The notes beneath the pieces were generated by a model that saw only the letters and a list, made by a program, of their open reading frames with translations, did not search any database and was not told the origin of the DNA. A stretch of 64,000 bases of DNA from a virus. Its lineage: Duplodnaviria; Heunggongvirae; Uroviricota; Caudoviricetes. Shown piece by piece: positions 4,441-22,037 of this stretch. The number at the start of each line of letters is the position of its first letter. Position 1 is the stretch's first letter. The DNA lies in the IMG/VR virus record IMGVR_UViG_3300028559_000005. One strand, 5' to 3'. A program made the translations under genes and the position numbers.

Positions 4441-6155
4441 TTATTTCCTTTGGGTTGTGCTTTTTCCATCTTTACTAATCTATCAGCTAAATCTATCAAT
4501 TTGTCCTGCACTGGTTTTGGCAATGCATCAAACGTGGCCTGATCGGGCACTGCTTTTTTGTAATTTGCTATTATGCGATCAAACTCAGCTTTATCTTCTG
4601 CGCTCATGGTGTTGGGTGCCATTGCTTTGGTCAGTTGATTCCAGGCTACATAGCCAATTCCTCCAACCATTGCTGCTTTTGTAGCTATGCTAGTGGCCGG
4701 AGCAATTATGTTGTTACCAATTCCTTTATAAATGTCTTGACCAGCTCGTCGAGCCGCTCTCCATGCAATCCGGCCTAGTCCTTCATCTACTATGTCACGA
4801 TCACGTGCCAGTTGTTCACTTAGTGTTTTGTATTCACGACTTTCAAAGTTATTTTTCTTTAATAACTTTTCAAGATCAGCTACAACAGTATTAACAGTTG
4901 GTACCGCTGCTGTTGCAGCTGGTGTAGCTGCCGGTGTAGCTGCTGTTGCAGCTGGTGTAGCTGCCGGTGTAGCTGCCGGTGTAGCTGCTGTTGCAGCTGG
5001 TGTAGCTGCCGGTGTAGCTGCCGGTGTTGCAGCTTGTTGTGTTGCCGTTGGTGTAGAATATCCTGTATCAACGGCTAGTTTTTCTAGATCTGTCAGAACT
5101 TTATGTATACGAGATTGTGTATCGGGCGGTAACGTATTTGCAATTTTAGGATCTTTGATAAAACTCATGACCACAGGAAGATTCTGTTTGACCACCGCTT
5201 GATCAGCATCATTCATGCCTTCTAGATTGTTGGAATCTTTGTATGCATCATACAGCATCTTACCTATATCCCAGACAGTGTATGCTGCACCAGCAGCGCC
5301 TATTAGTGGAGCAAGTGGACCTGATAATGCTGCGGCTCCTGCTGTTCGGGCACCTAATCCAGGCAATTTAGAAAGAATTTGTTGCCCGGCTTTAGATACC
5401 CAGCCGGATGGCTTTAGTTCTACAGCCTTTGCAGGTGCAGTTGGTGCACCGCTGGGTTTGTTGAATCGATCGTATACAGAAGGCTGAGCCGCTGCTGATG
5501 CTGCCGGAGGTTGAGCCGCTACTGCTGTAGGAGGAACATAGCCTCCTTTTTGTATCATTGGTTGCTGAAATCCTGGAGTTTCTTGAGCATCCAGATCTGG
5601 CGGAATTCTCTGTGCAATACGTGCTTGATATTCGTTTGGGGTTAGTTGGCGATCGACTTCGTAAATTCGACTTTCTGAAACTTTGATCTTGCCTTTGTAC
5701 TTGGCAACAATTGATTCAATGGCACTCAGTGCAGCATTCAATTTGCTAGTATCCACAGCAGGGGTAGCAGCTTGTGCAATACTGAGATCAGCATATTTGG
5801 CTGCAATGTTGGGATACTTGGCCATGGCAGCAGTGGTCAACGGGCCTATGTCACCGTCTATGCCATCACGATTTGCACCTGTGGCACCTAATTCAGCACC
5901 AGCAGCTTTGAGCTCTGCTTGCAATTTTTTAATACGACCCACATCGCCGCCACCTGTTGAACCACCTTGTGTCACTGGTGCAGGACGATCCGCTGCACCT
6001 CCGGCTACAAATTGATGTTTCAATGCCTGATGTTGACTTTGTGGTGTGCCACATACCACACAGCGAGGTTCTGAACTCGGTTGTGTAGGGTTAGATAATT
6101 CTGGATCTGCCTCATTCAAGAGATCAAGGTACCGACGAAATTGATTAGTGCTCAT
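4437..6155 (-). CDS. peptidoglycan-binding domain protein with Ala/Thr/Pro tandem-repeat linker
   Basis: PG_binding_1-like segment LQAELKAAGAELGATGANRDGIDGDIGPLTTAAMAKY. Long (ATPAATPAATPAATA)n tract encoded by the 15-bp tandem DNA repeat at 4905-5035. Lys-rich C-terminus. Confidence 0.55.
   Translation of the reverse strand: MSTNQFRRYLDLLNEADPELSNPTQPSSEPRCVVCGTPQSQHQALKHQFVAGGAADRPAPVTQGGSTGGGDVGRIKKLQAELKAAGAELGATGANRDGIDGDIGPLTTAAMAKYPNIAAKYADLSIAQAATPAVDTSKLNAALSAIESIVAKYKGKIKVSESRIYEVDRQLTPNEYQARIAQRIPPDLDAQETPGFQQPMIQKGGYVPPTAVAAQPPAASAAAQPSVYDRFNKPSGAPTAPAKAVELKPSGWVSKAGQQILSKLPGLGARTAGAAALSGPLAPLIGAAGAAYTVWDIGKMLYDAYKDSNNLEGMNDADQAVVKQNLPVVMSFIKDPKIANTLPPDTQSRIHKVLTDLEKLAVDTGYSTPTATQQAATPAATPAATPAATAATPAATPAATPAATAATPAATPAATAAVPTVNTVVADLEKLLKKNNFESREYKTLSEQLARDRDIVDEGLGRIAWRAARRAGQDIYKGIGNNIIAPATSIATKAAMVGGIGYVAWNQLTKAMAPNTMSAEDKAEFDRIIANYKKAVPDQATFDALPKPVQDKLIDLADRLVKMEKAQPKGNK
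4905..5035. repeat. in-frame 15-bp tandem repeat (gctgccggtgtagct / gctgttgcagctggt units)
   Basis: About 8-9 near-identical units are visible. They encode the ATPAATPAA linker of the 572-aa protein. Confidence 0.8.
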
Positions 6156-6191
6156 GCAGATATTTACCTTTTTTCACAAGCACTGTCTACA

Positions 6192-6425
6192 TCAATATTT
6201 CCTGTGATGGCTTTTGCTTGCAATGTCTTGAGGTTTATACAACCAGCTACGATTCACAAAACCTTGTTCAATTTCACGTAGAGCTGTGACTGCATGACTA
6301 GTCACGTTGGTTACTTTGGGCATGTCACCACGTGCCAGTTCTCGTGCTCGACGAGCTGCAATCAGTACCAAATCGTAACGGTTACCAATCATTGCTACTG
6401 CATCTTGACTAGTGAGTCTTGCCAT
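6192..6425 (-). CDS. rpoZ: RNA polymerase omega subunit (RpoZ) homolog
   Basis: MARLTSQDAVAMIGNRYDLVLIAARRARELA...ALREIEQGFVN aligns closely with E. coli RpoZ [31 protein letters not shown]...ALREIEEGLIN. The start is trimmed to the internal ATG preceded by AGGAGA. Confidence 0.6.
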   Translation of the reverse strand: MARLTSQDAVAMIGNRYDLVLIAARRARELARGDMPKVTNVTSHAVTALREIEQGFVNRSWLYKPQDIASKSHHRKY

Positions 6426-6577
6426 ATTTTTCTCCTGGGGGTTGTTGATAGTTACAGTATACAACGAATCACACACGTAGTCAAGTCAGAACTGTTTCAA
6501 TTTGGTGATATCCAATGCGTTCGAAGTATTCTGTTTGTGTGCCTATGCTAGTATATAGTGATTGAGAAATAACAGTC

Positions 6578-6615
6578 AAAAGAAAGCCCGCCGAAGCGGG
6601 CCTCTGTTATTTTTG
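6578..6615. terminator. bidirectional rho-independent terminator
   Basis: GC hairpin gcccgc-cgaa-gcgggc flanked by a T-run on the plus strand (ctctgttattttt) and a T-rich run on the minus strand (tttcttttg). It lies between tRNA-Thr and rpoZ. Confidence 0.55.
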
Positions 6616-6927
6616 GTTACAAGGTATAACTACCTCGTGGAGGTCACGCTGCTAGGCGTTCTTCTCCAAAGTATGCATCGTTTGCATTTAGGTTTTTTGT
6701 GTCTACGACCGGGTTACCCCAATCCTAACGGCTTCTACATTGCCGGACTGTCCAGTCAAATACTGCACCGACTGTCGAATCTAAGACCGGCCCATCATAA
6801 AAACACCGTATGCTCTTATGGTGGACCGGGCGGGGCACCGCCCCCCGCGTCCAGTCAATTGTTCTTTTTCCTTCATACAGTCTTAACTTACAGTATATAT
6901 TTATTTCTACATGCTGTCAAGTGAATT

Positions 6928-7002
6928 TGGTGCTGATAGCAGGATTTGAACCTACGACCTCTTTCATACCAAGAAAGCACACTACCTCTGTGTTATATCA
7001 GC
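6928..7002 (-). tRNA. tRNA-Thr (anticodon GGT)
   Basis: Acceptor GCTGATA/TATCAGC with discriminator A and encoded CCA. Anticodon arm CTTTC-TTGGTAT-GAAAG. T-arm GTAGG-TTCAAAT-CCTGC. Confidence 0.7.
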
Positions 7003-7063
7003 AAATTAATTTAGTGGAAGACCTCTTGCTGCTCTTCCGTTTCCTCTGTTTTTACCTTTCCAT

Positions 7064-7894
7064 GTGTCAGTAAAATATATATACACTATGGCCAAACTAA
7101 CAAACTTTCCCACAGTGAATTATATCACACTATACGAGAACATAGATCGAATGGAGTTTATGAATGCTCAATTGACTAGATATAGTATACGTTACATGCC
7201 ATGTTTGAATCACAGATATACTACATTTCAACATAAAGTTAATATTTTGTGGCCAGAAGTTGTCAAAGAGGATGCTGAAACATTTCAAGGATTCAGCCAT
7301 CCAGGTACGATTATTAGTTATTTGACTGCAATGAAAAATTGGTATGATACAACCAATGAAGAACATGTGATATTTTGTGATGACGACATGAGTTTTGAAT
7401 CTATTGACCATTGGAGTTTTACCTGGCAAGAGTTTGTAGATAACTTGCCCACTGATTGGGAAGCTGTACACTTAGTACGTATTAATAATTGGCATGTTGG
7501 ATTGATTAACAATGCTATCAAATTTGAAATACCATCACTGCAACTACGAAAAAAAGAATGGGACGATTTTGGTGGTGCCGGACTGTTCAAACGTGAATAC
7601 ATTAAAAAAATATTAGATCGACATTGGATAGATGCTTTAAATTATGATTTTAGAATACCCTATAATGACGGCTCCACAATGTTTTATTATGCAACTATTG
7701 AAAATACATTATTCAATGGATTATGTGATACAGTTTACAATATTCCACTATTGTTAGAATATCCTGGATTTCCAACCACAATGAACGTACAAAGAATGTT
7801 ATATTCTCATGACAGGTCCTACGAATACTATTCAACACTATGGAAAATGTACGGTAGAGATTTTCCACTGCGGTATATCATGAATCAAACATGA
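7064..7894 (+). CDS. hypothetical protein (276 aa), possible glycosyltransferase
   Basis: Plus-strand ORF in a minus-strand neighbourhood. Weak resemblance to GT25-type N-terminus (NYITLYENIDRMEFMNAQL). No decisive motif. Confidence 0.35.
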   Translation: MSVKYIYTMAKLTNFPTVNYITLYENIDRMEFMNAQLTRYSIRYMPCLNHRYTTFQHKVNILWPEVVKEDAETFQGFSHPGTIISYLTAMKNWYDTTNEEHVIFCDDDMSFESIDHWSFTWQEFVDNLPTDWEAVHLVRINNWHVGLINNAIKFEIPSLQLRKKEWDDFGGAGLFKREYIKKILDRHWIDALNYDFRIPYNDGSTMFYYATIENTLFNGLCDTVYNIPLLLEYPGFPTTMNVQRMLYSHDRSYEYYSTLWKMYGRDFPLRYIMNQT

Positions 7895-7901
7895 AATTTT
7901 A

Positions 7902-7979
7902 TGGAGCGACTGGCAGGACTCGAACCTGCATGAATCCTTTAGCTTTCTCTTGGTTCGAAGCCAAGCGGCATACAGTCGC
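7902..7979 (-). tRNA. tRNA-like gene, identity uncertain (possible anticodon TCG)
   Basis: Perfect acceptor GCGACTG/CAGTCGC, discriminator T, encoded CCA. T-arm GCAGG-TTCGAGT-CCTGC. The D-arm is abnormal or short. Candidate anticodon arm CTTGG-CTTCGAA-CCAAG. Confidence 0.45.
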
Positions 7980-8075
7980 AATCTATCCGTTGAACGCTCG
8001 GCCCTGAAGAAGAACCCTGCCGTATATAACAACTTCTGGGAGTGGCAGTTACACAGAGGGCAGGGCCGTGTTATC

Positions 8076-8167
8076 TGGCGGAGAGCAGAGGAGTCGAACC
8101 CCATCCCATTTCTGAGAACCTGGTTTTCAAGGCCAGTCGCAGGACCATCCCCGCTGCATTACTCTCC
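8076..8167 (-). tRNA. tRNA-Ser (anticodon TGA), type II
   Basis: 92 nt. Acceptor GGAGAGT/GCTCTCC with encoded CCA. Anticodon loop CTTGAAA. Long variable arm. T-arm GGGGTTCGACTCCTC. Confidence 0.55.
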
Positions 8168-8308
8168 AAATTGGTGGGATTCGTTTTGAGGCCGGTCCCG
8201 ATGAGTAGATCACTACTGCCTATTACGTTGTGTTTGTACCATTGCTTGCTCAAGGATTTACCGCGGTACCTTGTAACTCATACCAATAACGTAATCTATC
8301 TTCTGCTC

Positions 8309-8383
8309 TGGAGCGGACAGCGGGAATCGAACCCGCAATTTAACTTTGGCAAAGTTATGTGTTACCACTAGCACCATGCCCGC
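8309..8383 (-). tRNA. tRNA-Gly (anticodon GCC)
   Basis: Acceptor GCGGGCA/TGTCCGC, discriminator T, encoded CCA. Anticodon arm TAACT-TTGCCAA-AGTTA. T-arm GCGGG-TTCGATT-CCCGC. Confidence 0.65.
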
Positions 8384-8402
8384 TTATGTTGTTATTATAT
8401 AT

Positions 8403-9446
8403 TCAAACCAAATTGATGTCAATCTTCTTCACAGCATTGACTCTTCTCACACTGTGACTGATTCCGCAATATTGTCTACAAGGTCTCATGAGATTTCTTA
8501 TTGGTTCGGCACTGTTCCATAATCGTGTGAGATCACCAGGACTGCTAATCTTGAAACTGGGAAACTGATCAGAAAAACACAAACGGGCAATACCATCCAT
8601 GTTGACCATGATGTTGCGATCAAAACTATTGCATATGGCATCTTCAGTACCGTGTCCGTCCCATCCTGTCACAGCATCTGCATTTTTAAACACACTGCGA
8701 TGATATCGACGTACAGTTTCTATATATTCAGGATCTAGATTCAACTGATATTTTTCTGAACAATGATTCATGATCTCAAACAATGCTTCATGATCGCGGA
8801 TCACATTGTTGTCGTAAAATTTGTCTGGTCTTGGATCGCCATTCTTGTCTAACAATGTGCCAAATGTTGGCTGCAACCAATTCAATTTTAACTTATCTGC
8901 TCCGAGATCATTCAACACAAAGTGGTAAAACTGATCCAGGTCTCGATAGTTCTGTTCGCACATGACCGACATGGCATAGATGGGGGTGTTGCTGTTTAAT
9001 TCTTTTCTTGCCTGCAACAACAACCGAATAGCATTCACTGCCATATCAAATGATCCTGTGACTCCGCGAGTTGAATCATGTACTTCTGGAATGTAACTGT
9101 TTAGCGAAATTGTTATTTCACTAGGACCTTGTGTGATCAATTTCTTGGCAAACGCCAGATCTGTGACCATGGTGCCATTCATCACACTCAAACATTTTAA
9201 TCCTAACTCACGACATTGAGTGGTTATAGGCCAATATCTTTCGGGATTCATCAAGGCTTCGCCGCCACAGATTACCACGGCACCATACGGATTTAAGGAA
9301 CTGAATTCCGTGATGATATCACTGCGTTGTTCTATAGATATGTGTGTGGGTAATACAACTTCTTCTCTGGTCCAATACATGCAGGTCTTGCATTTGAGAT
9401 TGCATTGTAGGTTGATATCTAAGAACAAGAATTTGGGTGGTTGCAT
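8403..9446 (-). CDS. radical SAM domain protein (possible SPASM-type C-terminus)
   Basis: CxxxCxxC cluster CNLKCKTCMYW near the N-terminus. GGE motif VICGGEALMNPERY. Additional C-terminal Cys residues (CNSFDRN...CFSDQ...CRQYC). Confidence 0.65.
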   Translation of the reverse strand: MQPPKFLFLDINLQCNLKCKTCMYWTREEVVLPTHISIEQRSDIITEFSSLNPYGAVVICGGEALMNPERYWPITTQCRELGLKCLSVMNGTMVTDLAFAKKLITQGPSEITISLNSYIPEVHDSTRGVTGSFDMAVNAIRLLLQARKELNSNTPIYAMSVMCEQNYRDLDQFYHFVLNDLGADKLKLNWLQPTFGTLLDKNGDPRPDKFYDNNVIRDHEALFEIMNHCSEKYQLNLDPEYIETVRRYHRSVFKNADAVTGWDGHGTEDAICNSFDRNIMVNMDGIARLCFSDQFPSFKISSPGDLTRLWNSAEPIRNLMRPCRQYCGISHSVRRVNAVKKIDINLV

Positions 9447-10183
9447 TATCTATTTAACACAATATTCTCAGGTCGAACCCCGTGTTCACTGTTGCCGGAC
9501 AACAACCATGCCTTCTCATGTTGGACCTGAATCTGTGGATCTGCCCATACATTATATCCTGCATTTATAGCTCTGTGACAGAACCCTGTATCCTCTGATA
9601 AAAATGCAGTTGTATCATCATCAACTTTGTATTCGACGGGTCGGAAGAATGGGCATTCCATGGATTCAAATACACCTTTTTGCACAGCCATAAAACCCAT
9701 ACCTGTTGCGGCCACTTGGAATCTACTTCCGTTGATTTGTACTAGCTCTCGTGGTAACCACAACAGGTTGGTTTTGCTATCACCATGAATCACAGCCTGT
9801 GCATAAGTTTTATTGTCATGCTGTATATAAAGTCCAGTGACAATCTTGTGTTCGGGGTTGCTGATCAATTGTGCAAGATCAGCAGGTGTCCAGATATTAT
9901 CGTTGTCGATCCAGATGATCCAATCGTAATCTATTGTGCCGTTGAATGGCTGGAAAGTCCTGGGAGGATTGCCAGTGGCACCCAACAACATGTTTCGACA
10001 GTTGTAAATTACCGGCGAATATGCATTTATGGTTATGTATTCTATATTGTTTTTATAAAGCCAACGAATAGTGTCATTCCATGCGGCCATCCAATTTTTA
10101 CTGAATGATTGCCCTGGGAAACAAAAAATCAATTTCATTTTAAATATTAGCTCTATTATATATTTAAATTGATTTAGTACCAA
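9446..10183 (-). CDS. putative glycosyltransferase (GT-A-like)
   Basis: DxD-like WIDNDNIW and EDTGFCHRAINAGYNVW segments. Stop/start is coupled with the upstream radical SAM gene. Assignment is tentative. Confidence 0.35.
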   Translation of the reverse strand: MVLNQFKYIIELIFKMKLIFCFPGQSFSKNWMAAWNDTIRWLYKNNIEYITINAYSPVIYNCRNMLLGATGNPPRTFQPFNGTIDYDWIIWIDNDNIWTPADLAQLISNPEHKIVTGLYIQHDNKTYAQAVIHGDSKTNLLWLPRELVQINGSRFQVAATGMGFMAVQKGVFESMECPFFRPVEYKVDDDTTAFLSEDTGFCHRAINAGYNVWADPQIQVQHEKAWLLSGNSEHGVRPENIVLNR

Positions 10184-10198
10184 CTAATAAATATTCTT

Positions 10199-10501
10199 GT
10201 GCTACGAACAAAACAACATATACCATTAAATCTACGACGCAGGATCATTGAACGCGATGGCGTGTATTGTGTGTACTGTGATGAAGATCTCACAGATGCT
10301 GAGATCCATATGGATCATGTTATACCTGAATCTCGAGGTGGAGCAACCACTTACGACAATCTACAAGTGACTTGTCGTAAGTGTAATCTAGCAAAGGGTG
10401 TGCTGTCCGAAGCTGAATTCTCTAATAGATTGAGAACTCGGGCAATGAACATCCTTTACAGGCTTGGTCCTACAACAGACCTTCCGCAGTCAACACAGTG
10501 A
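10199..10501 (+). CDS. HNH endonuclease
   Basis: CVYCDEDL...HMDHVIPESRGGATTYDNLQVTCRKCNLAKG is a classic HNH motif. Small plus-strand ORF inserted among minus-strand genes. Confidence 0.8.
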   Translation: MLRTKQHIPLNLRRRIIERDGVYCVYCDEDLTDAEIHMDHVIPESRGGATTYDNLQVTCRKCNLAKGVLSEAEFSNRLRTRAMNILYRLGPTTDLPQSTQ

Positions 10502-11054
10502 CCACATCTGCACTGAGTTCGATTTCAGTGCGAACGTTGATTTCCAACAATTCATCTTGCAATTTTTGTTTGGCTTTCTTGCCCATACTCACTGCTGTAC
10601 GGAATCCAGCAATGTCTTCCGCTGTGAAGATAGAAGTATCCACAGTGACATCATGTCCGTAATACAAACTACGAGCGTCTTCCTTGCGATTACGAATTTT
10701 TTCTATCTTACCGGCAACAACCTCCATGCTATCACGTGTACTTTTACCAGCCAATTCGGCAAGATACTGAATCTTTTTGTCCAGCAGGGCCACATCAGCC
10801 AATTTGATATCAACACCCTGGGCACTGTTAGCCTGGCTCACAGCCTTACGGATATCATACAGACTGTTTAGCAGCCCACGATGGCGGTCTTGCTTGATAG
10901 CAAAATCCTGACGATAGTTGGCGATTACATCTTCGGCAACTTGGAATTCGTTGATTTTGACTTCAGTGTCAAATTTAATACTTTTGATTGCATCCTGGAT
11001 AGACAGTTGCAATGCGTTAGCTTTGCGTAGATTGATTTTCATAATTTCTTTCAT
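10470..11054 (-). CDS. hypothetical protein (194 aa)
   Basis: Long coiled-coil-like ORF on the dominant strand. No motif. Confidence 0.4.
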   Translation of the reverse strand: MKEIMKINLRKANALQLSIQDAIKSIKFDTEVKINEFQVAEDVIANYRQDFAIKQDRHRGLLNSLYDIRKAVSQANSAQGVDIKLADVALLDKKIQYLAELAGKSTRDSMEVVAGKIEKIRNRKEDARSLYYGHDVTVDTSIFTAEDIAGFRTAVSMGKKAKQKLQDELLEINVRTEIELSADVVTVLTAEGLL

Positions 11055-11359
11055 TAAACAATAAGGGCGGCAAGACCCAAGTCAAGTCACAGACTAAGCA
11101 AGGTGCAATATGCAACATGCAAAGTACAAACCACAGTGGCCTGCGTATGTCCGGTTATCAAAGTGCAAATGTCTATAATAAGTCCGGTTCACACAAGCAC
11201 GATCCAAGTTTCCTTGGAGGCCAATTTTGTTCAGCTGTTCAGGCTGGTGTTGGCATGAAGCCAACGTTTGTCTGTGCTAATCTACTTGGTTCTTGCCAGT
11301 CAACTCGCGTTGACAAAAACAATTATATACAAAACAGCGATGTAAATCAACTGTTTTGG

Positions 11360-11842
11360 TTAAGCTGCTCGACGATTGCTCAACACCCAATCCATCCTAT
11401 CTGCTGCATAGCTAGCAGCAAAGGCCCGGGGCTTGACCATTGGAATCACATTGCAAGTGCCTTTGATGTAACCAATTGCTTGGTTTACCACCACAGAACT
11501 TTTGTGCATCTGATCTGGATTGATGTCCAAGTGTACTTCCACAAGACGGTCTTCAAGTACATCACTCATCTTTTGGAACAGTTCGGAAACTTTGTATACT
11601 TCGTTCATGAGTCGCATGGCAGGTTTGTCGCTGCGTTGATCCCAGTCACGTTCACGTTGTACTTCACCAAAGATTTTGCAACCATGGCAGCTATCAATGT
11701 GTACAACCACTGCCAGAGCATAGTCTGCGTACCATACGCCATTGACCTTTACTCGTTCGCTGTCGCAACCCAGATAGACCGCAGTTTCTGGACTTTGAGC
11801 AGTGATAAATTCTTTGACCTCGGTCATGTCCATTTTTTTCAT
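11360..11842 (-). CDS. hypothetical protein (160 aa)
   Basis: Minus-strand ORF preferred over the overlapping plus-strand 292-aa shadow ORF. Weak RNase H-like/DUF458-like impression only. Confidence 0.4.
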   Translation of the reverse strand: MKKMDMTEVKEFITAQSPETAVYLGCDSERVKVNGVWYADYALAVVVHIDSCHGCKIFGEVQRERDWDQRSDKPAMRLMNEVYKVSELFQKMSDVLEDRLVEVHLDINPDQMHKSSVVVNQAIGYIKGTCNVIPMVKPRAFAASYAADRMDWVLSNRRAA

Positions 11843-11859
11843 GATTCACTTTCTTTGAT

Positions 11860-11936
11860 TGGCGCACCGTGTACGATTCGAACGTACAACATTTGGTTTT
11901 GGAGACCAACGTTCTGCCAATTGGAACTAACGATGC
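11860..11936 (-). tRNA. tRNA-Trp (anticodon CCA)
   Basis: GCATCGT acceptor. Anticodon loop CTCCAAA. T-loop TTCGAAT. Encoded CCA. Confidence 0.7.
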
Positions 11937-11943
11937 ATATTTT

Positions 11944-12035
11944 TGGTACCAGCGGAGAGACTCGAACTCTCTCAAGAACGCTAATCTGGCGCTAAAAGGC
12001 TTATAAGACCTCTCTGACTACCCAGTCTCGCTGGC
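11944..12035 (-). tRNA. type II (long variable arm) tRNA, apparent anticodon TAT, identity unresolved
   Basis: 92 nt. Acceptor GCCAGCG/CGCTGGT with encoded CCA. 3-bp D stem. Anticodon arm GAGGT-CTTATAA-GCCTT. About 20-nt variable arm. T-arm GAGAG-TTCGAGT-CTCTC. Confidence 0.45.
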
Positions 12036-12041
12036 ATTGTC

Positions 12042-12116
12042 TGGTGCGGCTAGCAGGAATCGAACCCACATTCACGGTGTAGAAGACCGCTGTATTATCC
12101 GTTATACTATAGCCGC
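12042..12116 (-). tRNA. tRNA-Arg (anticodon TCT)
   Basis: Anticodon arm GCGGT-CTTCTAC-ACCGT. T-loop TTCGATT. Encoded CCA. Confidence 0.65.
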
Positions 12117-12178
12117 AAATTTAATGAATGAACGCCAGATAAATTTACTTTGGTATCCTCTGTAAATTTACTTTGATA

Positions 12179-12221
12179 TTGGTACGAGAGACGGGATTCG
12201 AACCCGTACGCTCGAAACAAA
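12179..12221 (-). pseudogene. tRNA 3'-half remnant (T-arm, acceptor 3' strand, CCA) without a 5' half
   Basis: RNA-sense ACGGG-TTCGAAT-CCCGT-CTCTCGT-A-CCA, immediately 3' of tRNA-Leu(TAA). No D or anticodon arm. Confidence 0.45.
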
Positions 12222-12222
12222 A

Positions 12223-12306
12223 TGGTGCGACTGACCGGACTCGAACCGGTACGAGAAACTCGAGGGATTTTAAGTCCCTTGCGGCTACCAATTACGCCAC
12301 AGTCGC
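12223..12306 (-). tRNA. tRNA-Leu (anticodon TAA), type II
   Basis: Anticodon arm AGGGA-CTTAAAA-TCCCT. Variable arm CGAGTTTCTCGTA. T-arm CCGG-TTCGAGT-CCGG. Encoded CCA. Confidence 0.7.
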
Positions 12307-12394: not shown

Positions 12395-12472
12395 TGGAGC
12401 AACGGGAGGGATTTGAACCCCCGGTTTTCAGGATTTGCAATCCCGTGCATTGGACCTCTCTGCCACCGTTGC
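12395..12472 (-). tRNA. tRNA-Cys (anticodon GCA)
   Basis: Anticodon arm CGGGA-TTGCAAA-TCCTG. T-arm GGGGG-TTCAAAT-CCCTC. Encoded CCA. Overlaps the 3' end of the hldD ORF call. Confidence 0.65.
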
Positions 12473-13219
12473 GTTAAACTTGCTCATATCAGCACAGGTG
12501 TACTTTTGATATGAGTCTTTTAAATTGTCGGGCATGGGGATTGTTTCAACAGGTACGTTAAAACTTTTTGCCACATCCATAAAACTCATGGTCTTTCCAG
12601 TACCCAAGTTCCATAGGCCACTAGGTGTATTATACAAGAAATCCAAGTGTGTGTCGACTAGTTTAGACACATGAACAAAGTCTCTTAGATAATATTCACT
12701 GCCTTCGAAAACTTGTATACAGCCGTTTGTTTCAGCTTGGCGTTTAAATTGCATAAACGGACTAGCTTGATTGCCTTTGTGTTCTTCGCCTTCAGGTCCG
12801 TACACATTAAAATAACGGAAACCTTGTACAACACTCCCACTTGGATGATCGCGTACATAACGTTCAAACAAGTATTTGCTCCACGCATAAGGAGTACGTG
12901 GGTCAACCGGAGCGTCTTCTCTAAATGTACTGGTTAACCCGTAAACACTTGCACTGCTTGCGTATTGGAAATTAACGCCATATGTTTTACAAGCATCGTA
13001 TAGTTGTCGACTAAAATCAAAATTTTGTCGCATTACTTTGTCTATGTCTCTTTCGGTAGTGCTGCTGATAGCACCAAGGTGAATCACCCAATCTTGTTCC
13101 ATCACGCTGGGCAAACTGTCTCCCCAGTCGTATGTTGATACACAGTGTCCAGCAGCCTCCAGTGCTGTCAGCACATGACTACCAATAAAACCTTTATAGC
13201 CGGTTAACAGTATGTTCAT
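12428..13219 (-). CDS. hldD: ADP-L-glycero-D-manno-heptose 6-epimerase (HldD/RfaD-like)
   Basis: NILLTGYKGFIGSH Rossmann motif. ASSASVYG, YAWSKYLFE (YxxxK) and GFRYFNVYGP...HKG segments align with E. coli HldD. Confidence 0.7.
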   Translation of the reverse strand: MNILLTGYKGFIGSHVLTALEAAGHCVSTYDWGDSLPSVMEQDWVIHLGAISSTTERDIDKVMRQNFDFSRQLYDACKTYGVNFQYASSASVYGLTSTFREDAPVDPRTPYAWSKYLFERYVRDHPSGSVVQGFRYFNVYGPEGEEHKGNQASPFMQFKRQAETNGCIQVFEGSEYYLRDFVHVSKLVDTHLDFLYNTPSGLWNLGTGKTMSFMDVAKSFNVPVETIPMPDNLKDSYQKYTCADMSKFNATVAERSNARDCKS

Positions 13220-13575
13220 TTTTGATTGTCGCCTTTGCCCACACGATAGTTGTCTTCCACACTGTCTGCTGTGCTGACTTCAATAACTGTGCCTTCTTCG
13301 ATGCATATCAACTGATGAGGCGCTAACGGTTTGTTGCGCCAAGTGTCGCCTGGTTTAAGTGTTGTGGTTGTTTGATCAGCATTTGTAGTGTCAATACTGA
13401 TCACAGTGAACAATCCGTCCAACACATACCATGTTTCGTCTTTGATAGCATGAAAATGCATGCTGAACTTGGCACCTTTGTTAAACTTCATAAGTTTGCC
13501 ACAGTATAGGTCGTTAGTGGCCCAAATTAGTTCGTGGCCCCATCCCTTTGCTACATAACCTTGTAATTGTGTCAT
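13216..13575 (-). CDS. cupin-domain protein (119 aa)
   Basis: Cupin His motif GAKFSMHFHAIKDETWYVLDG. Sits inside the heptose gene block. Possibly a sugar isomerase or epimerase. Confidence 0.45.
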   Translation of the reverse strand: MTQLQGYVAKGWGHELIWATNDLYCGKLMKFNKGAKFSMHFHAIKDETWYVLDGLFTVISIDTTNADQTTTTLKPGDTWRNKPLAPHQLICIEEGTVIEVSTADSVEDNYRVGKGDNQK

Positions 13576-14333
13576 CCTATTTCCTTTAATGTTGGAGCAT
13601 AAACCCCTGAATGCTGCACAGTAACCGCACTCGCCAGGTTGGCAAATTTAATTGCTTTTTCAATGTCTCCAGTGTCAAGGTACTGATAAGTTAACGCTGC
13701 TAGAAAGGTATCACCTGCTCCAGTTACATCTACTACTTCTACACTGTGCGAAGATACATCTATACTATGATGTATTGCACTAGCACCTCGACTGCCTCGT
13801 GTGACGATTAGACCTGAACATTCACTTTTAATTTTGCTATGTTCTAATTCGTTGATCTTGACCCATGCGCCTTGGAATCTCTCAAGGTCAGATTTCTTAG
13901 TATCGATAAAGATAGGAATACTCAATGCAATAAGTTCTTCAATTAGTTCGTAACTAACAGTTCCTTTATTATAATCACTGATTACAATAGCATCGTACAT
14001 GTCGGGGATATCTGTATCAAATGTAATGGGAGTTGACTGAACGTCTCTATCTATACGAACAATCTGTTGTTTACTACGCTCGTCGATAAGTCTAGTTTTA
14101 ACACTTGTTTCACCGTGCAAGTAGTCAACATAGCAACCCAGTGCTTTTAAGTTGTTAGCTACATTACCAGCCATGCCAGCACGTTCTTCTGTACGAGTAG
14201 GAACAAATACAGGAACAGGTGCTTCGGGACTTAACCTATCAATAGTACCATATTGGTACACATCAGTACAGTTATCGCCTATTAGCAATATCTTGAATTG
14301 TTTTTGTTGTTGAGTATTCACCGACTCTATCAT
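13572..14333 (-). CDS. D-glycero-beta-D-manno-heptose-7-phosphate kinase domain (HldE N-terminal / HldA-like, PfkB family)
   Basis: ISPEAPVPV and DVTGAGDT motifs. FKILLIGDNCTDVY N-terminus parallels the HldE kinase domain. Confidence 0.7.
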   Translation of the reverse strand: MIESVNTQQQKQFKILLIGDNCTDVYQYGTIDRLSPEAPVPVFVPTRTEERAGMAGNVANNLKALGCYVDYLHGETSVKTRLIDERSKQQIVRIDRDVQSTPITFDTDIPDMYDAIVISDYNKGTVSYELIEELIALSIPIFIDTKKSDLERFQGAWVKINELEHSKIKSECSGLIVTRGSRGASAIHHSIDVSSHSVEVVDVTGAGDTFLAALTYQYLDTGDIEKAIKFANLASAVTVQHSGVYAPTLKEIG

Positions 14334-14724
14334 AAAATATCACTTGATTAACATGTTCTTGTGCCACTACGCTCTTACCTTGCCAGTCACTGCCTTTGAC
14401 CATGATGTCTGGTTTATATTCTTTCATTATATCTATCAGTTGTTCTTTGCTATCAAAGAAGTAAACAGTGTTAACACATTTTAAACTTTCTAACATATAT
14501 CGTCTATCATCTTGATTATTAATAGGCCGATTTTCACCTTTAAGTTCTTTTACTCTTCGATCTGTATCAATTGCCACTAACAGATGATCGCCGAGACTTT
14601 TTGCGTGTTGTAACATCATTAGATGTCCACGATGCAATATATCAAATGTTCCGTTTACTATTACTTTGGTCATGTTATTTGGTACCTGGTGACGGGATCG
14701 AACCGCCCACACCCGGATTTTCAA
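14272..14724 (-). CDS. D-glycero-beta-D-manno-heptose-1-phosphate adenylyltransferase domain (HldE C-terminal / HldC-like cytidylyltransferase fold)
   Basis: NGTFDILHRGHLMMLQHAKSLGDHLLVAIDTD...GENRPIN matches the HldE domain II (GCFDILHAGH...SRP) pattern. Confidence 0.7.
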   Translation of the reverse strand: MKIRVWAVRSRHQVPNNMTKVIVNGTFDILHRGHLMMLQHAKSLGDHLLVAIDTDRRVKELKGENRPINNQDDRRYMLESLKCVNTVYFFDSKEQLIDIMKEYKPDIMVKGSDWQGKSVVAQEHVNQVIFYDRVGEYSTTKTIQDIANRR

Positions 14725-14755
14725 TCCGGTGCTCTACCTACTGAGCTATCTTGGC
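14680..14755 (-). tRNA. tRNA-Phe (anticodon GAA), acceptor stem poorly paired
   Basis: GCCAAGATAGCTCAGTAGGTAGAGC 5' half is E. coli Phe-like. Anticodon arm CCGGA-TTGAAAA-TCCGG. The 3' strand ACCAGGT-A-CCA mispairs at 3 of 7 positions, so it may be degenerate. Confidence 0.5.
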
Positions 14756-14761
14756 AATATT

Positions 14762-14835
14762 TGGTACCTCGTTGGAGAATCGAACTCCCGTATCCACCGT
14801 GTAAGGATGGCGTTCTACCATTAAACTACCGAGGC
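14762..14835 (-). tRNA. tRNA-Val (anticodon TAC)
   Basis: Anticodon arm CCATC-CTTACAC-GGTGG. T-loop TTCGATT. Encoded CCA. Confidence 0.55.
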
Positions 14836-15342
14836 CTTGTACTCTCTCAAATACGAATTTCTTTTCGTATTCTTTTTATATCTACTTCCTTGTCCGGCAT
14901 TGCCAAATGTTTCTGTTTGTGTATGACAATTAGGACACAATAATCTTAAATTACTCAATTGATTATTATCGCTGTTACCATCTATGTGATCTAATTGTAA
15001 TACAAGCGGCTTGCTATTCCAGGTATTTTCTTGCCCACATTCAACACAACTATCTCCGCATTTTTCTTTAAGATATCGCTTATAGTTTCCACCAAGTCCT
15101 TGTTCAATTTTAGGAATTGAGACAAACTCCCATTGATATTTTCCAGAACATTCAACTGAACAAAACTTATTTTCAGTGCTATTACTGTGCTCAAACTCTG
15201 CATTACAATACCCACACTCATACAGTCTTTGATTTTTTTTCCTACTCATTGAGTAGCGACTAGGTTTATCTTTGTGTGCTATTTGATGAGCATTTCTAGC
15301 ACGATGATTTTCAAATTCTTTCCCACAGTGGCATTTATACAT
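14821..15342 (-). CDS. HNH homing endonuclease
   Basis: Zn-finger-like CHCGKEF...CGYCNAEF plus HNH motif LQLDHIDGNSDNNQLSNLRLLCPNCH. Embedded in the tRNA array. Confidence 0.75.
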   Translation of the reverse strand: MYKCHCGKEFENHRARNAHQIAHKDKPSRYSMSRKKNQRLYECGYCNAEFEHSNSTENKFCSVECSGKYQWEFVSIPKIEQGLGGNYKRYLKEKCGDSCVECGQENTWNSKPLVLQLDHIDGNSDNNQLSNLRLLCPNCHTQTETFGNAGQGSRYKKNTKRNSYLREYKASVV

Positions 15343-17172: not shown

Positions 17173-17255
17173 CCATATAGAAACACACTAGTCGGAAACG
17201 ACTTAGAGACCTACTTGCCCACAGTCACGAAGGCTTCTAATATGTTTTTATATGG
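17173..17255. repeat. hairpin element copy 2 (same terminal inverted repeat)
   Basis: ccatatagaaacacac...tgtttttatatgg. Its end overlaps the ATG of plus-strand ORF 17252..17914. Confidence 0.6.
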
Positions 17256-17914
17256 TTAAAAATATTTTTAATCTGATAAATAACTATATGATAATACAAA
17301 ACTTTCTTAAAAGTCAATTCTATAAAAACAAATCACCTAACTTGATTAAGCTAGGATTTAACTATGATAATAGTGCCGAGACTGAATTTTTAAAAATTCA
17401 GTCTATGCTATATACTGAATATCATATTAAATGCGAATCTATGCTAACACTTATGAAACAATTTAGCATACCTAGTTCAAGAACTATGGACATTATTTTT
17501 AGACTGTTTGATATCGAGGCACGATCATTTTCAGAAAGTCAATCAAATGCAATAACAACTAATAGAGTTGTTATGCCAAGTAATACTAGATTCAAACATA
17601 TTTTCCATACTGCTTGGTTTGGAGAAATATTTTGTCTAAGATCATCATACGAAGAAGATTATGCCAAACTCCTCGATCAATCGCAAACAAAATATTTTGT
17701 AGAACACTTACGAATAAAATATTTTAACTCTAATCAGCAACGCTACAGAATAGCAATACCTGATTTTTATCTACCCGAAACTAACACTATCGTAGAAGTT
17801 AAATCTACTTACTGGTTAGACGAAACTGAAATGCGTGATAAGAAAGAAGCATATACCGCACTTGGATATAAATTCATTCTCAATCTAGAACATCGGTTAT
17901 TAGAAAATTGGTAG
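17252..17914 (+). CDS. hypothetical protein (220 aa), possible mobile nuclease
   Basis: Very AT-rich, opposite strand, inside the tRNA array. Weak PD-(D/E)xK-like IVEVKSTYW near the C-terminus. Confidence 0.35.
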   Translation: MVKNIFNLINNYMIIQNFLKSQFYKNKSPNLIKLGFNYDNSAETEFLKIQSMLYTEYHIKCESMLTLMKQFSIPSSRTMDIIFRLFDIEARSFSESQSNAITTNRVVMPSNTRFKHIFHTAWFGEIFCLRSSYEEDYAKLLDQSQTKYFVEHLRIKYFNSNQQRYRIAIPDFYLPETNTIVEVKSTYWLDETEMRDKKEAYTALGYKFILNLEHRLLENW

Positions 17915-21830: not shown

Positions 21831-22037
21831 TTATTTTGACTCTGCTGCTTCTAACGCATCAGCAGCTTCTTCCAGCAGATCAGCAATGCGGTCAGGCGCA
21901 CCTTCCGCGACACTTTTACGTGAACTGATCTGCCGACGAATCTCAGCTCGCTTGCGCAGACGAAAAATCAAACTTTGTTCACTCACAGGCAAATGGCTTT
22001 CATCTTTCATGCTGCCTCCAGATAGTTGCGTACCCAC
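21831..22037 (-). CDS. hypothetical small protein (68 aa)
   Basis: ORF only. Overlaps the downstream ligase-like gene by 31 nt. Confidence 0.3.
   Translation of the reverse strand: MGTQLSGGSMKDESHLPVSEQSLIFRLRKRAEIRRQISSRKSVAEGAPDRIADLLEEAADALEAAESK

Follow-up and report, generated by a model that had tools for sequence, protein, structure and literature searches.

A four-gene cassette among tRNA genes

The DNA analysed here is a single stretch of 64 kb (the window). At 12428-14673 it carries four intact, co-directional genes on the minus strand, which encode, in this order, a nucleotidyltransferase (NT), a kinase, a cupin and an epimerase. The features of the locus are as follows:

12395-12472, minus strand: tRNA-Cys(GCA) (ARAGORN; Rfam, 59.7 bits)
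12428-13219, minus strand: compact HldD-like 6-epimerase (SDR), 263 aa (TIGR02197)
13216-13575, minus strand: single-domain cupin, 119 aa (Cupin_2, 5e-8)
13572-14333, minus strand: compact HldA-like kinase (PfkB), 253 aa (TIGR02198)
14272-14333, minus strand: out-of-frame overlap of the NT and kinase genes, 62 nt (ORF coordinates and sequence)
14272-14673, minus strand: HldC-like NT, 133 aa (TIGR02199, PF01467)
14683-14755, minus strand: extra, Phe-like tRNA gene with anticodon loop GAA (Rfam RF00005, 48.5 bits, E 1.3e-8, full model)
14762-14835, minus strand: tRNA-Val(TAC), the upstream flank of the cassette (ARAGORN; Rfam tRNA, 50.1 bits)

All four reading frames described in the first-pass annotation are found, with the NT frame listed there as 14272-14724. 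The TTG at 14724 was rejected as a start codon; it lies inside the Phe-like tRNA gene (Rfam, 48.5 bits). The true start is the ATG at 14673, which gives a protein of 133 aa, the length seen in relatives. This tRNA gene, which is not called by ARAGORN and whose megablast match is a phage tRNA-Phe, ends 10 nt ahead of the NT start codon. At the other end of the cassette the epimerase frame runs into tRNA-Cys: its last 45 nt (14 codons and the stop) are the first 45 nt of the tRNA gene. This overlap is kept in the two closest relatives (loci L015 and L018), as is the position of tRNA-Val(TAC), and gene order and both tRNA flanks are identical in the two.

The 62-nt overlap of the NT and kinase genes, also claimed earlier, is real, and the kinase/cupin and cupin/epimerase pairs overlap by 4 nt each. 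Because of these three overlaps the genes are probably translationally coupled, and they are probably transcribed together with the tRNA array around them. Compared with L015 (kinase identity 90%), dN/dS for the three enzyme genes is 0.08-0.18 (0.08 for the epimerase, 0.12 for the kinase, 0.18 for the NT). With these values and the conserved out-of-frame overlap, the cassette genes are under purifying selection and are neither pseudogenes nor recent host cargo. The window as a whole is phage DNA, containing a T4-type PolB (41-49% identity to PolB from the jumbo phages Phosso, Atu_ph07, and GAP32), 30 tRNAs, RNA ligases, and HNH endonucleases. Its source is a jumbo phage, a relative of the Atu_ph07/GAP32 group.

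Enzyme families and their spread in viruses

The best family match of the NT is TIGR02199 (rfaE_dom_II; E 9.4e-36, model positions 12-143 of 144), with 122.8 bits, which is below the curated membership cut-off of 181.5; the glycerol-3-P cytidylyltransferase model gives 82.2 bits, and PF01467 (cytidylyltransferase fold) is matched as well. The motifs NGTFDILHRGH (HxGH), NRPINN (RPxN), and YSTTKTI (C-terminal STT) align with domain II of E. coli HldE.

For the kinase, TIGR02198 (rfaE_dom_I) is the top of 23 PfkB families, scoring 158.3 bits in three stretches (E 2.4e-46) against a curated equivalog cut-off of 345, which it does not reach; ribokinase, second among the stand-alone families, gives 55.8 bits. 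Aligned to E. coli HldE, the kinase keeps the GDxxxDxY...RLSPEAPVPV lid, SDYNKG, and DVTGAGDT with the catalytic Asp, and these family motifs vary little or not at all among 24 divergent viral homologues. The motifs quoted in the first-pass annotation (YAWSK, GFRYFNVYGP, DVTGAGDT, GTFDILHRGH) are present except for the kinase lid, which reads LSPEAPVPV and not ISPEAPVPV. The sequence matches HldA of PDB 4E84 at 6e-21. With an AF2 model (pLDDT 82), each of the first seven Foldseek matches in the PDB is to HldA of B. cenocepacia (E 5.6e-19 to 2.2e-17, TMq 0.72-0.80), and the next family follows at 6e-14, about five orders of magnitude worse. The structure search thus agrees with the sequence grouping, HldA being the nearest fold. 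The kinase and NT do not group with ribokinase or families unrelated to RfaE, since RfaE domains I and II are best by sequence. The kinase belongs to the heptose-7-P 1-kinase family, and we infer that it phosphorylates C1.

The epimerase is best matched by TIGR02197 (heptose_epim; 2e-60, model positions 65-296 only) with 204.6 bits, under the curated cut-off of 274.6, while the GalE model gives 79.7 bits. Its nearest solved structure by sequence is AGME (PDB 1EQ2, 7e-44). GxxGxxG (G6, G9, G12), Y140, K144, K178, R209, Y272, and Q273 (E. coli numbering) are invariant between E. coli HldD and six viral forms. We take Lys178 to be the AGME-specific second base and Tyr140-x3-Lys144 to be the SDR pair.

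All three enzymes score below the NCBIfam equivalog cut-offs because they are shortened viral versions. Two stretches of E. coli HldE, ~28 aa at ~70-97 and ~19 aa at ~209-229, have no counterpart in the kinase, which thereby loses one beta-alpha unit and one helix; both deletions are common to all viral forms and leave the PfkB core (~310 residues when complete) incomplete. In the epimerase the insertion that follows beta2 and binds the NADP 2'-phosphate (about 27 aa) and the C-terminal helix (about 20 aa) are both missing. Since these parts have been lost, substrate or cofactor specificity may differ from that of the bacterial enzymes. Nevertheless, the core of the first reading, a phage-borne module of ADP-heptose type with separate and overlapping kinase and adenylyltransferase genes, holds, HldA, HldC, and HldD being the families that match best.

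The NT gene precedes the kinase gene, opposite to the order of the domains in HldE. The idea that the split genes are a broken HldE was therefore rejected. Segments encoded in both frames of the 62-nt overlap align with HldE. Of 69 viral loci, 66 have such an overlap, 44-68 nt long and in every case 2 mod 3, and it persists across 35-87% sequence divergence. The reversed order and this persistent overlap indicate that the cassette is an old viral lineage and not recent host cargo. It is present in at least 581 IMG/VR contigs, and this conservation, together with the purifying selection, removes the earlier concern that the genes might be host-derived cargo or pseudogenes. Kinase relatives of ~250 aa form 362 clusters. 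The best 150 among 1.84 billion representatives are all stand-alone proteins of ~200-285 aa, not of HldE or HldA length, and every genomic context examined is viral.

Linkage was counted in 55 IMG/VR viral loci in which the kinase is flanked by 3 kb or more in both directions. Of these, 54 also contain the NT, 52 (95%) contain the cupin, 45 the epimerase, and 22 a HAD phosphatase, and none contains a SIS GmhA; all four genes of the window cassette occur together in 43. Where a phosphatase is linked (it is absent in 33 of the 55), it is one of three kinds: GmhB-like (NF006506, 131 bits), mini-HAD, or NT5C-like. The GmhB-like enzyme found in some cassettes has the heptose-1,7-bisphosphate phosphatase model as its best match, and five-gene sets such as cupin-GmhB-NT-kinase-epimerase exist (L027, L028, L038, L045). 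Cassettes often adjoin tail-fibre or baseplate genes. Some also lie near genes for 2OG oxygenases and carbamoyl-, sulfo-, and methyltransferases; one relative (L003) has a tandem double cupin, and a second SDR is found in some others.

The cupin and the isomerase step

A SIS-type GmhA is missing wherever it was sought with the cassette: a Pfam scan of 54 window ORFs finds no SIS domain, tblastn with E. coli GmhA finds no match in the 64-kb window or any fetched locus, and none of 80 viral loci has the enzyme. In the phage database the cupin occurs in 35 records and the kinase in 31, all 31 of which have both; SIS GmhA occurs in 13 records, none of them among these 31.

The cupin has a modelled cupin fold (pLDDT 82) and a metal site, His40/His42/Glu47/His87, that is invariant in 34 sequences. 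Its other motifs are an N-terminal KGWGHE and a C-terminal STxDSVEDNYR, for the latter of which no counterpart was identified. Nearly all homologues (32 of 34) match the type II PMI model (PF01050) over almost its full length, with E up to 0.01 and 1.5e-5 at best, and this is the sole function-specific cupin family so matched. The window cupin itself, aligned over profile positions 11-107 of 116, reaches 18.1 bits (E 3.3e-3), less than the Pfam gathering cut-off of 23.6, and its identity to solved isomerase cupins is 14-21%. Both the window protein and type II PMI (e.g., the minimal archaeal PMI, PDB 7ZVY) consist of one small cupin whose metal site is His/His/Glu/His, and both carry (K/R)xWGxE/Y at the N-terminus. 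PMI catalyzes a ketose-to-manno-aldose isomerization of the same kind as GmhA. Its reaction, ketose-6-P to manno-aldose-6-P, is chemically equivalent to that of GmhA, although it acts on a C6 sugar phosphate whereas the substrate proposed for the window cupin is C7.

We infer that the cupin is a sedoheptulose-7-P isomerase, a non-homologous replacement for GmhA. Since its fold differs from SIS, it is at most an analogue of GmhA and not a member of that family. Linkage supports this role, as 52 of the 55 viral kinase loci contain the cupin and none contains a SIS GmhA. The first-pass annotation had let the cupin stand in for either GmhA or GmhB; the context strongly favours the former and goes against the latter, the phosphatase being a separate HAD gene where present.

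A fairly unlikely alternative is that an NDP-heptose is made but the cupin acts after activation, as an epimerase or isomerase on a keto intermediate of the SDR (like CapF/WbuC or the C3/C5 epimerases of Campylobacter Cj1430 type), so that the product is a modified heptose stereoisomer and the host GmhA isomerizes. A weak match to the NCBIfam WbuC family (1.4e-4) is consistent with such a role, as are the tandem cupins or second SDR of some relatives, and the tailoring enzymes near some cassettes suggest elaborated sugars. However, the cupin occurs with kinase and NT and with no SDR within 3 kb in nine loci, while an SDR without the cupin is found in only two; this argues that the cupin acts upstream of the SDR product. 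In marine contigs L006-L010, too, a fused kinase-NT is accompanied by the cupin with no SDR in the vicinity. The SDR also retains the two-base pair of AGME, Tyr140/Lys178, and needs no helper. In addition, the hosts of cyanophages have LPS without heptose (PMC4515613), and with SIS GmhA absent from cassette-bearing phage records this alternative leaves the isomerase step without an enzyme.

Proposed pathway and its relation to known systems

The reading we prefer, to which we assign a probability of roughly 0.6, is that the four genes encode a miniaturized nucleotide-heptose pathway of viral type, in which the cupin supplies the isomerase step and the phosphatase comes from the host or an unlinked gene. 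The cupin, working like type II PMI as a metal-dependent aldose-ketose isomerase, would convert sedoheptulose-7-P to D-glycero-D-manno-heptose-7-P, filling the slot of the SIS-fold GmhA of bacteria. The 253-aa HldA-like kinase would then phosphorylate C1. As no HAD phosphatase (GmhB-like, mini-HAD, or NT5C-like) is encoded in the 64-kb window, or in L015 and L018, removal of the 7-phosphate would be left to the host GmhB or an unlinked phage gene. The HldC-like NT may use ATP or CTP and, with ATP, would form ADP-D,D-heptose, which the HldD-like SDR would epimerize at C6''. The product is most likely ADP-L-glycero-beta-D-manno-heptose.

It is improbable that the cassette activates another sugar, a hexose or other ketose-derived phosphate, through a shortened kinase and a shortened epimerase, both of shifted specificity, with heptose being no more than the closest annotated relative. 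Such a change is suggested by scores below the equivalog cut-offs, by the loss of ~47 residues from each of these two enzymes relative to those of E. coli, by the 82 bits of the NT against glycerol-3-P cytidylyltransferase, and by the cupin's nearest specific family, which works on hexose-6-phosphates. Against it, the HldA-specific RxSPEAPVPV lid and SDYxKG and the AGME-specific Lys178 motif are kept, the structural match to HldA has an E-value some five orders of magnitude better than the next, and a heptose-1,7-bisphosphate phosphatase-like enzyme lies inside some cassettes.

In the nucleotide-heptose pathway, the product would feed phage-directed glycosylation, with virion or tail-fibre protein a better candidate acceptor than the host envelope, and the latter better than phage DNA. 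The first-pass annotation counted many glycosyltransferase-like genes in the window, which is overstated; two weak candidates are found, at 9446-10183 (PHROG GT, 1.2e-5) and 43473-44315 (GT2, 1.9e-4, below cut-off), and no heptosyltransferase, 5hmC-forming enzyme, or DNA glycosyltransferase was identified there. We give little credence to the view that these are host-derived LPS-core genes that merely boost host ADP-heptose for LPS remodelling or maintenance (e.g., superinfection exclusion), with no virus-specific chemistry and the cupin as a passenger: cyanophage papers do call the genes host-acquired, heptose-related LPS genes (PMC7378029, PMC9602691), the window has no phage heptosyltransferase, and the absent phosphatase implies reliance on host GmhB, but the closest kinase relatives are compact and in viral contexts, the reversed gene order and overlap have survived wide divergence, 95% of loci have a linked cupin, heptose is absent from cyanobacterial LPS (PMC4515613), and cassettes often lie beside tail-fibre or baseplate genes.

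A bolder form of the preferred reading, which we hold tentatively and at slightly less than even odds, is that the 119-aa cupin is an unrecognized sedoheptulose-7-P isomerase substituting for SIS GmhA in a self-sufficient miniaturized ADP-heptose pathway widespread among aquatic phages, which serves virus-specific heptosylation (of tail-fibre or virion proteins or DNA) and not host LPS. Cyanophages, whose hosts' LPS is free of heptose, must supply the isomerase step themselves. If the bolder form is true, the pathway would run even in hosts making no heptose, such as marine cyanobacteria.

The viral cassette is known but unstudied, and is itself a variant of the bacterial ADP-L-glycero-beta-D-manno-heptose pathway of the Gram-negative LPS core (GmhA, HldE or HldA plus HldC, GmhB, HldD). 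Three of the five steps use the same families with their catalytic motifs kept (GAGD Asp and RxSPEAPVPV lid, HxGH, Tyr140/Lys144/Lys178), and GmhB-like phosphatases in related viral cassettes imply the same step logic. Split HldA and HldC are also found in some bacteria, e.g., Burkholderia (HldA structure 4E84). The viral enzymes differ in being 15-20% shorter and under the curated cut-offs. The NT gene comes before the kinase gene, against the domain order of HldE, and the two share a conserved out-of-frame overlap of 44-68 nt; a 119-aa cupin is linked in place of a SIS-fold GmhA; the phosphatase is absent in the window, and relatives draw on three HAD groups; and the carriers are viruses, including some whose hosts' LPS has no heptose.

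The cassette has already been annotated, and left uncharacterized, in T4-like cyanophages (P-SSM2, S-CAM1/3, S-SSM7; PMC7378029), and the window copy is a new member. The cyanomyovirus 'heptose/LPS' cluster (P-SSM2 gp309-313; S-CAM1, S-CAM3, S-SSM7, S-SM2, P-TIM68, S-T4, and others) is orthologous to the window set, with identities of 44% for the NT (P-SSM2 gp309), 40-47% for the kinase, 32-42% for the cupin, and 38-43% for the epimerase. It has the same NT/kinase overlap (41 nt in P-SSM2) and compact protein lengths, the architecture being matched in P-SSM2 and S-CAM3. Cyanophage sets carry an additional mini-HAD phosphatase, whereas the window has none, and their epimerase is on the opposite strand, adjoining 2OG oxygenase, carbamoyltransferase, and tail-fibre genes, whereas the window set is one co-directional block between tRNA genes. 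The RefSeq names 'phosphoheptose isomerase' for the cyanophage mini-HAD and 'cysteine dioxygenase' for the cupin both appear to be wrong.

The UDP-arabinofuranose route of phage DNA arabinosylation (RB69 gp51-55, DLP3 gp81-83, HY126 AfhE/AfhF; PMC13326640) has the same four-step logic as the window cassette. There, a ketose phosphate of the pentose phosphate pathway is isomerized, phosphorylated at C1, relieved of its distal phosphate by a small 1XPJ-like HAD, and nucleotidylated (PMC13326640); the cyanophage mini-HAD likewise matches structure 1XPJ. The route differs in its sugar, in its enzymes (SIS arabinose-5-P isomerase, APH-like kinase, GlmU-type uridylyltransferase), and in having a demonstrated DNA acceptor and a dedicated glycosyltransferase, no counterpart of which turned up in the window. 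The route demonstrates that phages make sugar nucleotides by entire pathways of their own. In the metagenomic phage cluster 'contig 53' (bioRxiv 10.1101/2023.12.21.572611) one or two heptoses are put on 5-hydroxymethylcytosine. Like the window cassette, it encodes a cytidylyltransferase-fold enzyme and a kinase, and also a phosphatase, to give activated heptose. The cluster sets a precedent for the modification of phage DNA with heptose. It differs in relying on a bifunctional HAD/APH enzyme together with a GT-B resembling T4 beta-GT, and has no PfkB kinase, cupin, or HldD-like epimerase.

Gene block and tRNA flanks

The block consists of four minus-strand open reading frames (ORFs), all of which the first-pass annotation had placed correctly except for the 5' end of the nucleotidyltransferase (NT). 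These genes and an additional neighbouring tRNA gene are as follows:

12428-13219, minus strand: epimerase, 263 aa (TIGR02197 heptose_epim, 2e-60)
13216-13575, minus strand: cupin, 119 aa (Cupin_2, 5e-8)
13572-14333, minus strand: PfkB kinase, 253 aa (TIGR02198 rfaE_dom_I, 2.4e-46)
14272-14673, minus strand: cytidylyltransferase-fold NT, 133 aa (TIGR02199 rfaE_dom_II, 9.4e-36)
14683-14755, minus strand: additional tRNA gene (Rfam, 48.5 bits over the full model; not called by ARAGORN)

HMM assignment, as that annotation had proposed, gave each enzyme the matching ADP-heptose step as its best family. Because four adjacent genes match successive steps of one pathway at such E-values, chance is ruled out.

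The NT had been started at a TTG at 14724, which falls within the tRNA gene at 14683-14755. The true start is the ATG at 14673, since the resulting 133 aa equals the NT length in relatives, and the tRNA gene explains the spurious N-terminal extension. The anticodon loop of this tRNA carries GAA (Phe-like), and its acceptor stem is poorly paired by eye. With the 29 tRNA genes called by ARAGORN, it brings the number in the window to 30.

The 62-nt overlap reported between NT and kinase is real (14272-14333). The kinase/cupin and cupin/epimerase junctions overlap by 4 nt each. The epimerase ORF shares its last 14 codons and its stop, 45 nt in all, with the 5' half of a same-strand tRNA-Cys gene (12395-12472). 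RNase P cleavage at the 5' end of this tRNA would strip the epimerase mRNA of its stop codon, so that tRNA maturation and epimerase translation may compete. Shortening of the epimerase by a recent tRNA insertion is rejected, as both the length (263 or 264 aa) and the 45-nt overlap are kept in the two nearest relatives, L015 (11865-11909) and L018 (11862-11906). Other viral epimerases have 255-272 aa.

A promoter and terminator scan of the module gave nothing above shuffled sequences. This, together with the tRNA flanks, suggests that the cassette is transcribed as part of the tRNA array. Among the window, L015, and L018, the tRNA-Val to tRNA-Cys frame of the cassette is constant although the content of the array varies. 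HNH and other homing-type endonuclease genes lie among the surrounding tRNA genes (14821-15342, minus; 10199-10501, plus; 17252-17914, plus) and may be the reason for this variation. ARAGORN assigns an unusually long tRNA gene of 92 nt (11944-12035, minus) to Ile(TAT) and puts its anticodon at positions 31-33; in Rfam it has a weak tRNA-Sec-like match (30 bits, below threshold). It is conserved in L015 (1535-1626) and L018 (12791-12882), and is perhaps a tRNA with a long variable arm, with an intron, or of another identity. Also near the cassette is a 160-aa phrog_11311 protein (11360-11842, minus). Its counterpart in L011, a viral locus of an otherwise different lineage, is 71% identical (3607-4074) and is called RNaseH_like/PF04308 by Pfam. 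An apparent RNA-repair block (22007-30087, minus) adjoins the array. It includes an Rnl1-type RNA ligase (22007-22909), an HD-domain protein (23856-24362), a metallophosphoesterase (24428-25081; no Pfam match, 66% identical to its homologue in viral locus L024), an AAA_33 kinase (27206-27721), and a second RNA ligase (29059-30087).

Divergent enzymes and the carrier phage

All three enzymes fall below the curated NCBIfam cut-offs (epimerase, 204.6 bits against 274.6; kinase, 158.3 against 345; NT, 122.8 against 181.5). They are divergent, shortened versions and not plain orthologues. The closest solved sequence to the kinase is HldA of B. cenocepacia (4E84, 6e-21). In a Foldseek search with its AlphaFold model (pLDDT 82), the top seven matches are HldA chains (5.6e-19 to 2.2e-17), and ribokinase-type enzymes follow from 6e-14. 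Aligned with E. coli HldE, the kinase retains GDxxxDxY, RLSPEAPVPV, SDYNKG, and DVTGAGDT and lacks ~28 residues after the first helix and a ~19-residue helix. Every viral form examined shares these deletions, among them the 375-aa kinase-NT fusion of marine contigs. In the same alignment the NT retains HxGH (FDILHRGH), RPIN, and the C-terminal STT.

The closest solved protein to the epimerase is E. coli AGME (1EQ2, 7e-44). G6/G9/G12, Tyr140, Lys144, Lys178, Arg209, and Tyr272 are invariant between E. coli HldD and six viral forms. Tyr140 and Lys178 are the two catalytic bases of AGME, Lys178 being specific to it. The epimerase lacks ~20 C-terminal residues and ~27 residues after beta2, a segment that contacts the NADP 2'-phosphate in the E. 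coli enzyme, so its cofactor preference may differ from that of E. coli.

The separate NT and kinase genes are not a frameshifted HldE fusion. The order of NT then kinase reverses the HldE domain order, the termini encoded in either frame of the overlap are conserved and can be aligned with HldE, and 66 of 69 loci keep the overlap. A fused kinase-NT does occur in marine contigs (L006-L010), where it has the HldE order.

The window is phage DNA. Its T4-type DNA polymerase shares 41-49% identity with the polymerases of Phosso, Atu_ph07, Serratia BF, and GAP32, all jumbo phages. Besides HNH endonucleases and two RNA ligases, the window carries several genes of radical-SAM and sugar-modifying type. 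Metagenomic relatives form more than 100 clusters with kinases 75-99% identical, on contigs of up to 357 kb, some from JGI/IMG samples. The closest relatives are L018 (kinase 94% identical) and L015 (90%, a 203-kb contig), and both have the gene order of the window: tRNA-Val, NT, kinase (62-nt overlap), cupin, and epimerase (263 or 264 aa). Values of dN/dS against L015 are low (NT, 0.18; kinase, 0.12; cupin, 0.09; epimerase, 0.08), indicating that the genes are functional. The first-pass annotation had raised the alternative of frameshifted, recently acquired host cargo. This is refuted by the intact ORFs, by dN/dS of 0.08-0.18, by the equal gene lengths in relatives, and by a megablast of the window against the phage collection, which gave no nucleotide-level match except tRNAs. 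The window copy is one more instance of the cassette, in an uncultured freshwater jumbo-phage lineage and in an unusual setting between tRNA genes.

A second biosynthetic cluster in the window (41847-52471, minus) combines 7-deazaguanine-type and sugar-modifying genes. It contains radical SAM, SAM methyltransferase, weak GT2, and B12-binding radical SAM genes, QueD/PTPS (47222-47698), a HIT-family protein (47777-48181), GTP cyclohydrolase I (48935-49723), a 198-aa DegT-like fragment covering only the N-terminal part of the family (49725-50321), and an SDR epimerase/dehydratase (50302-51321). An unusual auxiliary gene (3085-4014, minus) encodes a TctC/Bug-family periplasmic solute receptor (PF03401, 7e-20). 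Since this family is much expanded in Burkholderiales, the gene may hint at the host.

Conservation of the viral cassette and the role of the cupin

A search of 1.84 billion representatives with the kinase found 362 clusters (50% identity) with E-values no higher than 1e-30. Each of the best 150 stands alone, with a length of ~200-285 aa. These compact kinases form a large clade that differs in length from HldA (~310 aa) and HldE (~475 aa). At least 581 IMG/VR viral contigs carry a relative. Neighbourhoods were examined in the best 80 of these (50-87% identity) by classifying ORFs with seed proteins, and partners were scored within 3 kb in the 55 loci that had at least 3 kb on either side of the kinase. 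NT is present in 54 of the 55 loci, the cupin in 52, an HldD-like SDR in 45, and a HAD phosphatase in 22, while SIS-type GmhA is found in none. Partner genes are contiguous and on the same strand as the kinase. Some sets are complete with five genes, such as cupin-GmhB-NT-kinase-epimerase (L027, L028, L038, and L045) and NT-kinase-cupin-miniHAD-epimerase (L026, L035, L053, and L088). In the 66 loci with the overlap, the stretch from the kinase ATG to the NT stop is 44-68 nt long, always 2 mod 3. This long out-of-frame overlap is old and conserved, and it fits translational coupling of the two activities joined in HldE.

The cupin is a single domain in which His40, His42, Glu47, and His87, the N-terminal KGWGxE, and the C-terminal STxDSVEDNYR are invariant among 34 homologues (71-97% identity). 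With its predicted model (pLDDT 82), fold searches are not discriminating: BFVD gave generic viral cupins, among them a giant-virus M6P isomerase. A profile search of PDB sequences gave generic bicupins only. The type II phosphomannose isomerase (PMI) cupin family PF01050 is matched by 32 of the 34 homologues (best E-value 1.5e-5, near-full profile). It is the only function-specific family matched by nearly all of them, the window cupin itself being sub-threshold.

The strongest evidence on the function of the cupin is its gene context. After NT, it is the most constant partner of the kinase. It occurs without SDR in nine loci, against only two with SDR and no cupin, and in marine contigs lacking an SDR in the vicinity it comes after the fused kinase-NT. 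The cupin and a phosphatase bring the cassette to five genes, equal to the five canonical steps, and a SIS isomerase is never present. Heptose is absent from cyanobacterial LPS (PMC4515613), so cyanophages cannot rely on a host heptose pathway. The reactions of PMI and GmhA are alike in kind, each being a ketose to manno-aldose isomerisation. From this chemistry and context, we infer that the cupin carries out the sedoheptulose-7-P isomerase step in the viruses, replacing GmhA without being orthologous to it. No paper describing a cupin-type sedoheptulose-7-P isomerase was found. The surprising element, suggested by the context, is that a self-contained viral pathway would have such an analogue as its heptose isomerase. 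If this is true, phages have a stripped-down route of their own from a central metabolite, sedoheptulose-7-P, to activated heptose, in part with another enzyme fold than that of the bacterial route, and with an analogous enzyme for the first committed heptose step, itself an antibiotic-adjuvant target. The cassette is abundant, by the counts given above, and its small size makes it directly testable.

In L003, from a related jumbo-phage lineage with a 78% identical kinase, two paralogous cupins lie in tandem (6891-7277 and 7290-7661). By tblastn, they share 41% and 58% identity with the cupin of the window; a global alignment gives 61% for the second. The L003 epimerase is a different, longer HldD-like protein (291 aa, only 33% identical to that of the window). 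Parts of the cassette have been shuffled among lineages.

Cyanophage counterparts, the phosphatase step, and use of the sugar

When 50,697 phage records were searched by tblastn, the kinase was found in 31 and the cupin in 35, with 31 shared. Every carrier (P-SSM2, P-SSM5, S-CAM1, S-CAM3, S-SSM7, S-SM2, S-T4, P-TIM68, Sf-CH5/8, and Sf-FS3) is a T4-like cyanophage or a marine single-cell viral contig, and the cassette proteins are 32-47% identical to those of the window. In P-SSM2 the order is NT gp309, kinase gp310 (41-nt overlap), gp311, and cupin gp312, with epimerase gp313 on the opposite strand. Close by are genes for a carbamoyltransferase, a 2OG oxygenase, and a tail fibre, and S-CAM3 is similar. 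The two small genes are located as follows:

P-SSM2 (L001), 5728-6072: gp311, mini-HAD
P-SSM2 (L001), 6053-6409: gp312, cupin
L002 (cyanophage), 5749-6069: mini-HAD
L002 (cyanophage), 6050-6406: cupin

RefSeq names P-SSM2 gp311 and S-CAM3 gp150 'phosphoheptose isomerase' (GmhA-type). We reject this name, as both are mini-HAD phosphatases, with the motifs DIDGT, TAR, GKP, and IDD, matches to PDB 9IQW (1e-10) and 1XPJ (5e-6), and the capsule biosynthesis phosphatase TIGR01689 as best NCBIfam model (1e-8). The cyanophage cupin also looks misnamed ('cysteine dioxygenase' in RefSeq, 'putative nucleotidyltransferase' in GenBank). If the reading of the cassette is true, long-standing misnomers of both proteins in cyanophage reference genomes would be corrected.

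Phosphatases linked to the cassette are of three kinds: GmhB-like (best NCBIfam NF006506, the heptose-1,7-bisphosphate phosphatase model, 131 bits), the ~105-aa mini-HAD also found in cyanophages, and an NT5C-like HAD (PF06941, 3e-10). The search for GmhA and GmhB proposed in the first-pass annotation was run within the 64-kb window by Pfam analysis of 54 ORFs and all-frame tblastn, and neither these nor a phosphatase of the three kinds was found. Because the window is a fraction of a much larger genome, the phosphatase may be encoded elsewhere in it or supplied by host GmhB.

As the acceptor of the sugar, a virion protein is the leading, if tentative, candidate. The gene right after the epimerase is baseplate/tail-fibre connector-like (phrog_677) in cyanophages and seven IMG/VR loci, and 2OG/prolyl-hydroxylase-like oxygenases, rotamase, and carbamoyl-, sulfo-, and methyltransferases are among the neighbours of cassettes. 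TPR proteins with a weak GT9-like motif occur in nine loci. Since there is a single weak PF01075 match (6.5e-3) and no support from PDB or NCBIfam, a putative heptosyltransferase is only a lead.

The host envelope, the traditional reading, is a less likely candidate. In the literature, the cassette genes of cyanophages count as 'heptose-related lipopolysaccharide synthesis' genes taken from the host (PMC7378029; also PMC9602691). As the LPS of their hosts has no heptose, the question of the purpose of these marine 'LPS genes' would, if the reading of the cassette is true, be reopened.

DNA is less likely still, on a par with some other acceptor. In marine contigs L006-L010 (~3900-12300), the fused kinase-NT, the cupin, and a second stand-alone NT share a block with PolB, a MazG-like PRA-PH, a thymidylate-synthase homologue, dCMP deaminase, an inositol-1-P-synthase-like protein, and a 5-hmdU DNA kinase; there the sugar may be linked to thymidine hypermodification. 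A 313-aa protein upstream of the fusion in L006 gave no PDB match. It is reported that another phage gene set makes heptosylated 5hmC (bioRxiv 10.1101/2023.12.21.572611). None of the partner genes of the virion or DNA leads adjoins the window cassette, which lies among tRNA and HNH endonuclease genes, a gene for a radical-SAM protein, and a weak GT-like ORF (9446-10183). No GT9-like, carbamoyl-, or sulfotransferase homologue was found in the window.

A phage-borne heptose module as such is not new, and no functional study of phage ADP-heptose was found in the literature. What is new is that this jumbo-phage lineage has one, and the roles proposed for the two small proteins. Compared with the bacterial pathway, the viral one works alike, but it misses all three curated family thresholds, two of the window enzymes lack segments, the halves of HldE are reversed and overlapping, and a cupin takes the position of GmhA. 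The phage UDP-arabinose route follows the same isomerase-kinase-phosphatase-NT logic, and 1XPJ-like HADs are its distal-phosphate phosphatases (PMC13326640). The window cassette is a clear member of the cyanophage cluster, with the same four proteins and the same overlap, but it has no linked phosphatase and a different genomic setting. The viral cassette is annotated but uncharacterised, and the window copy is a new member of it.
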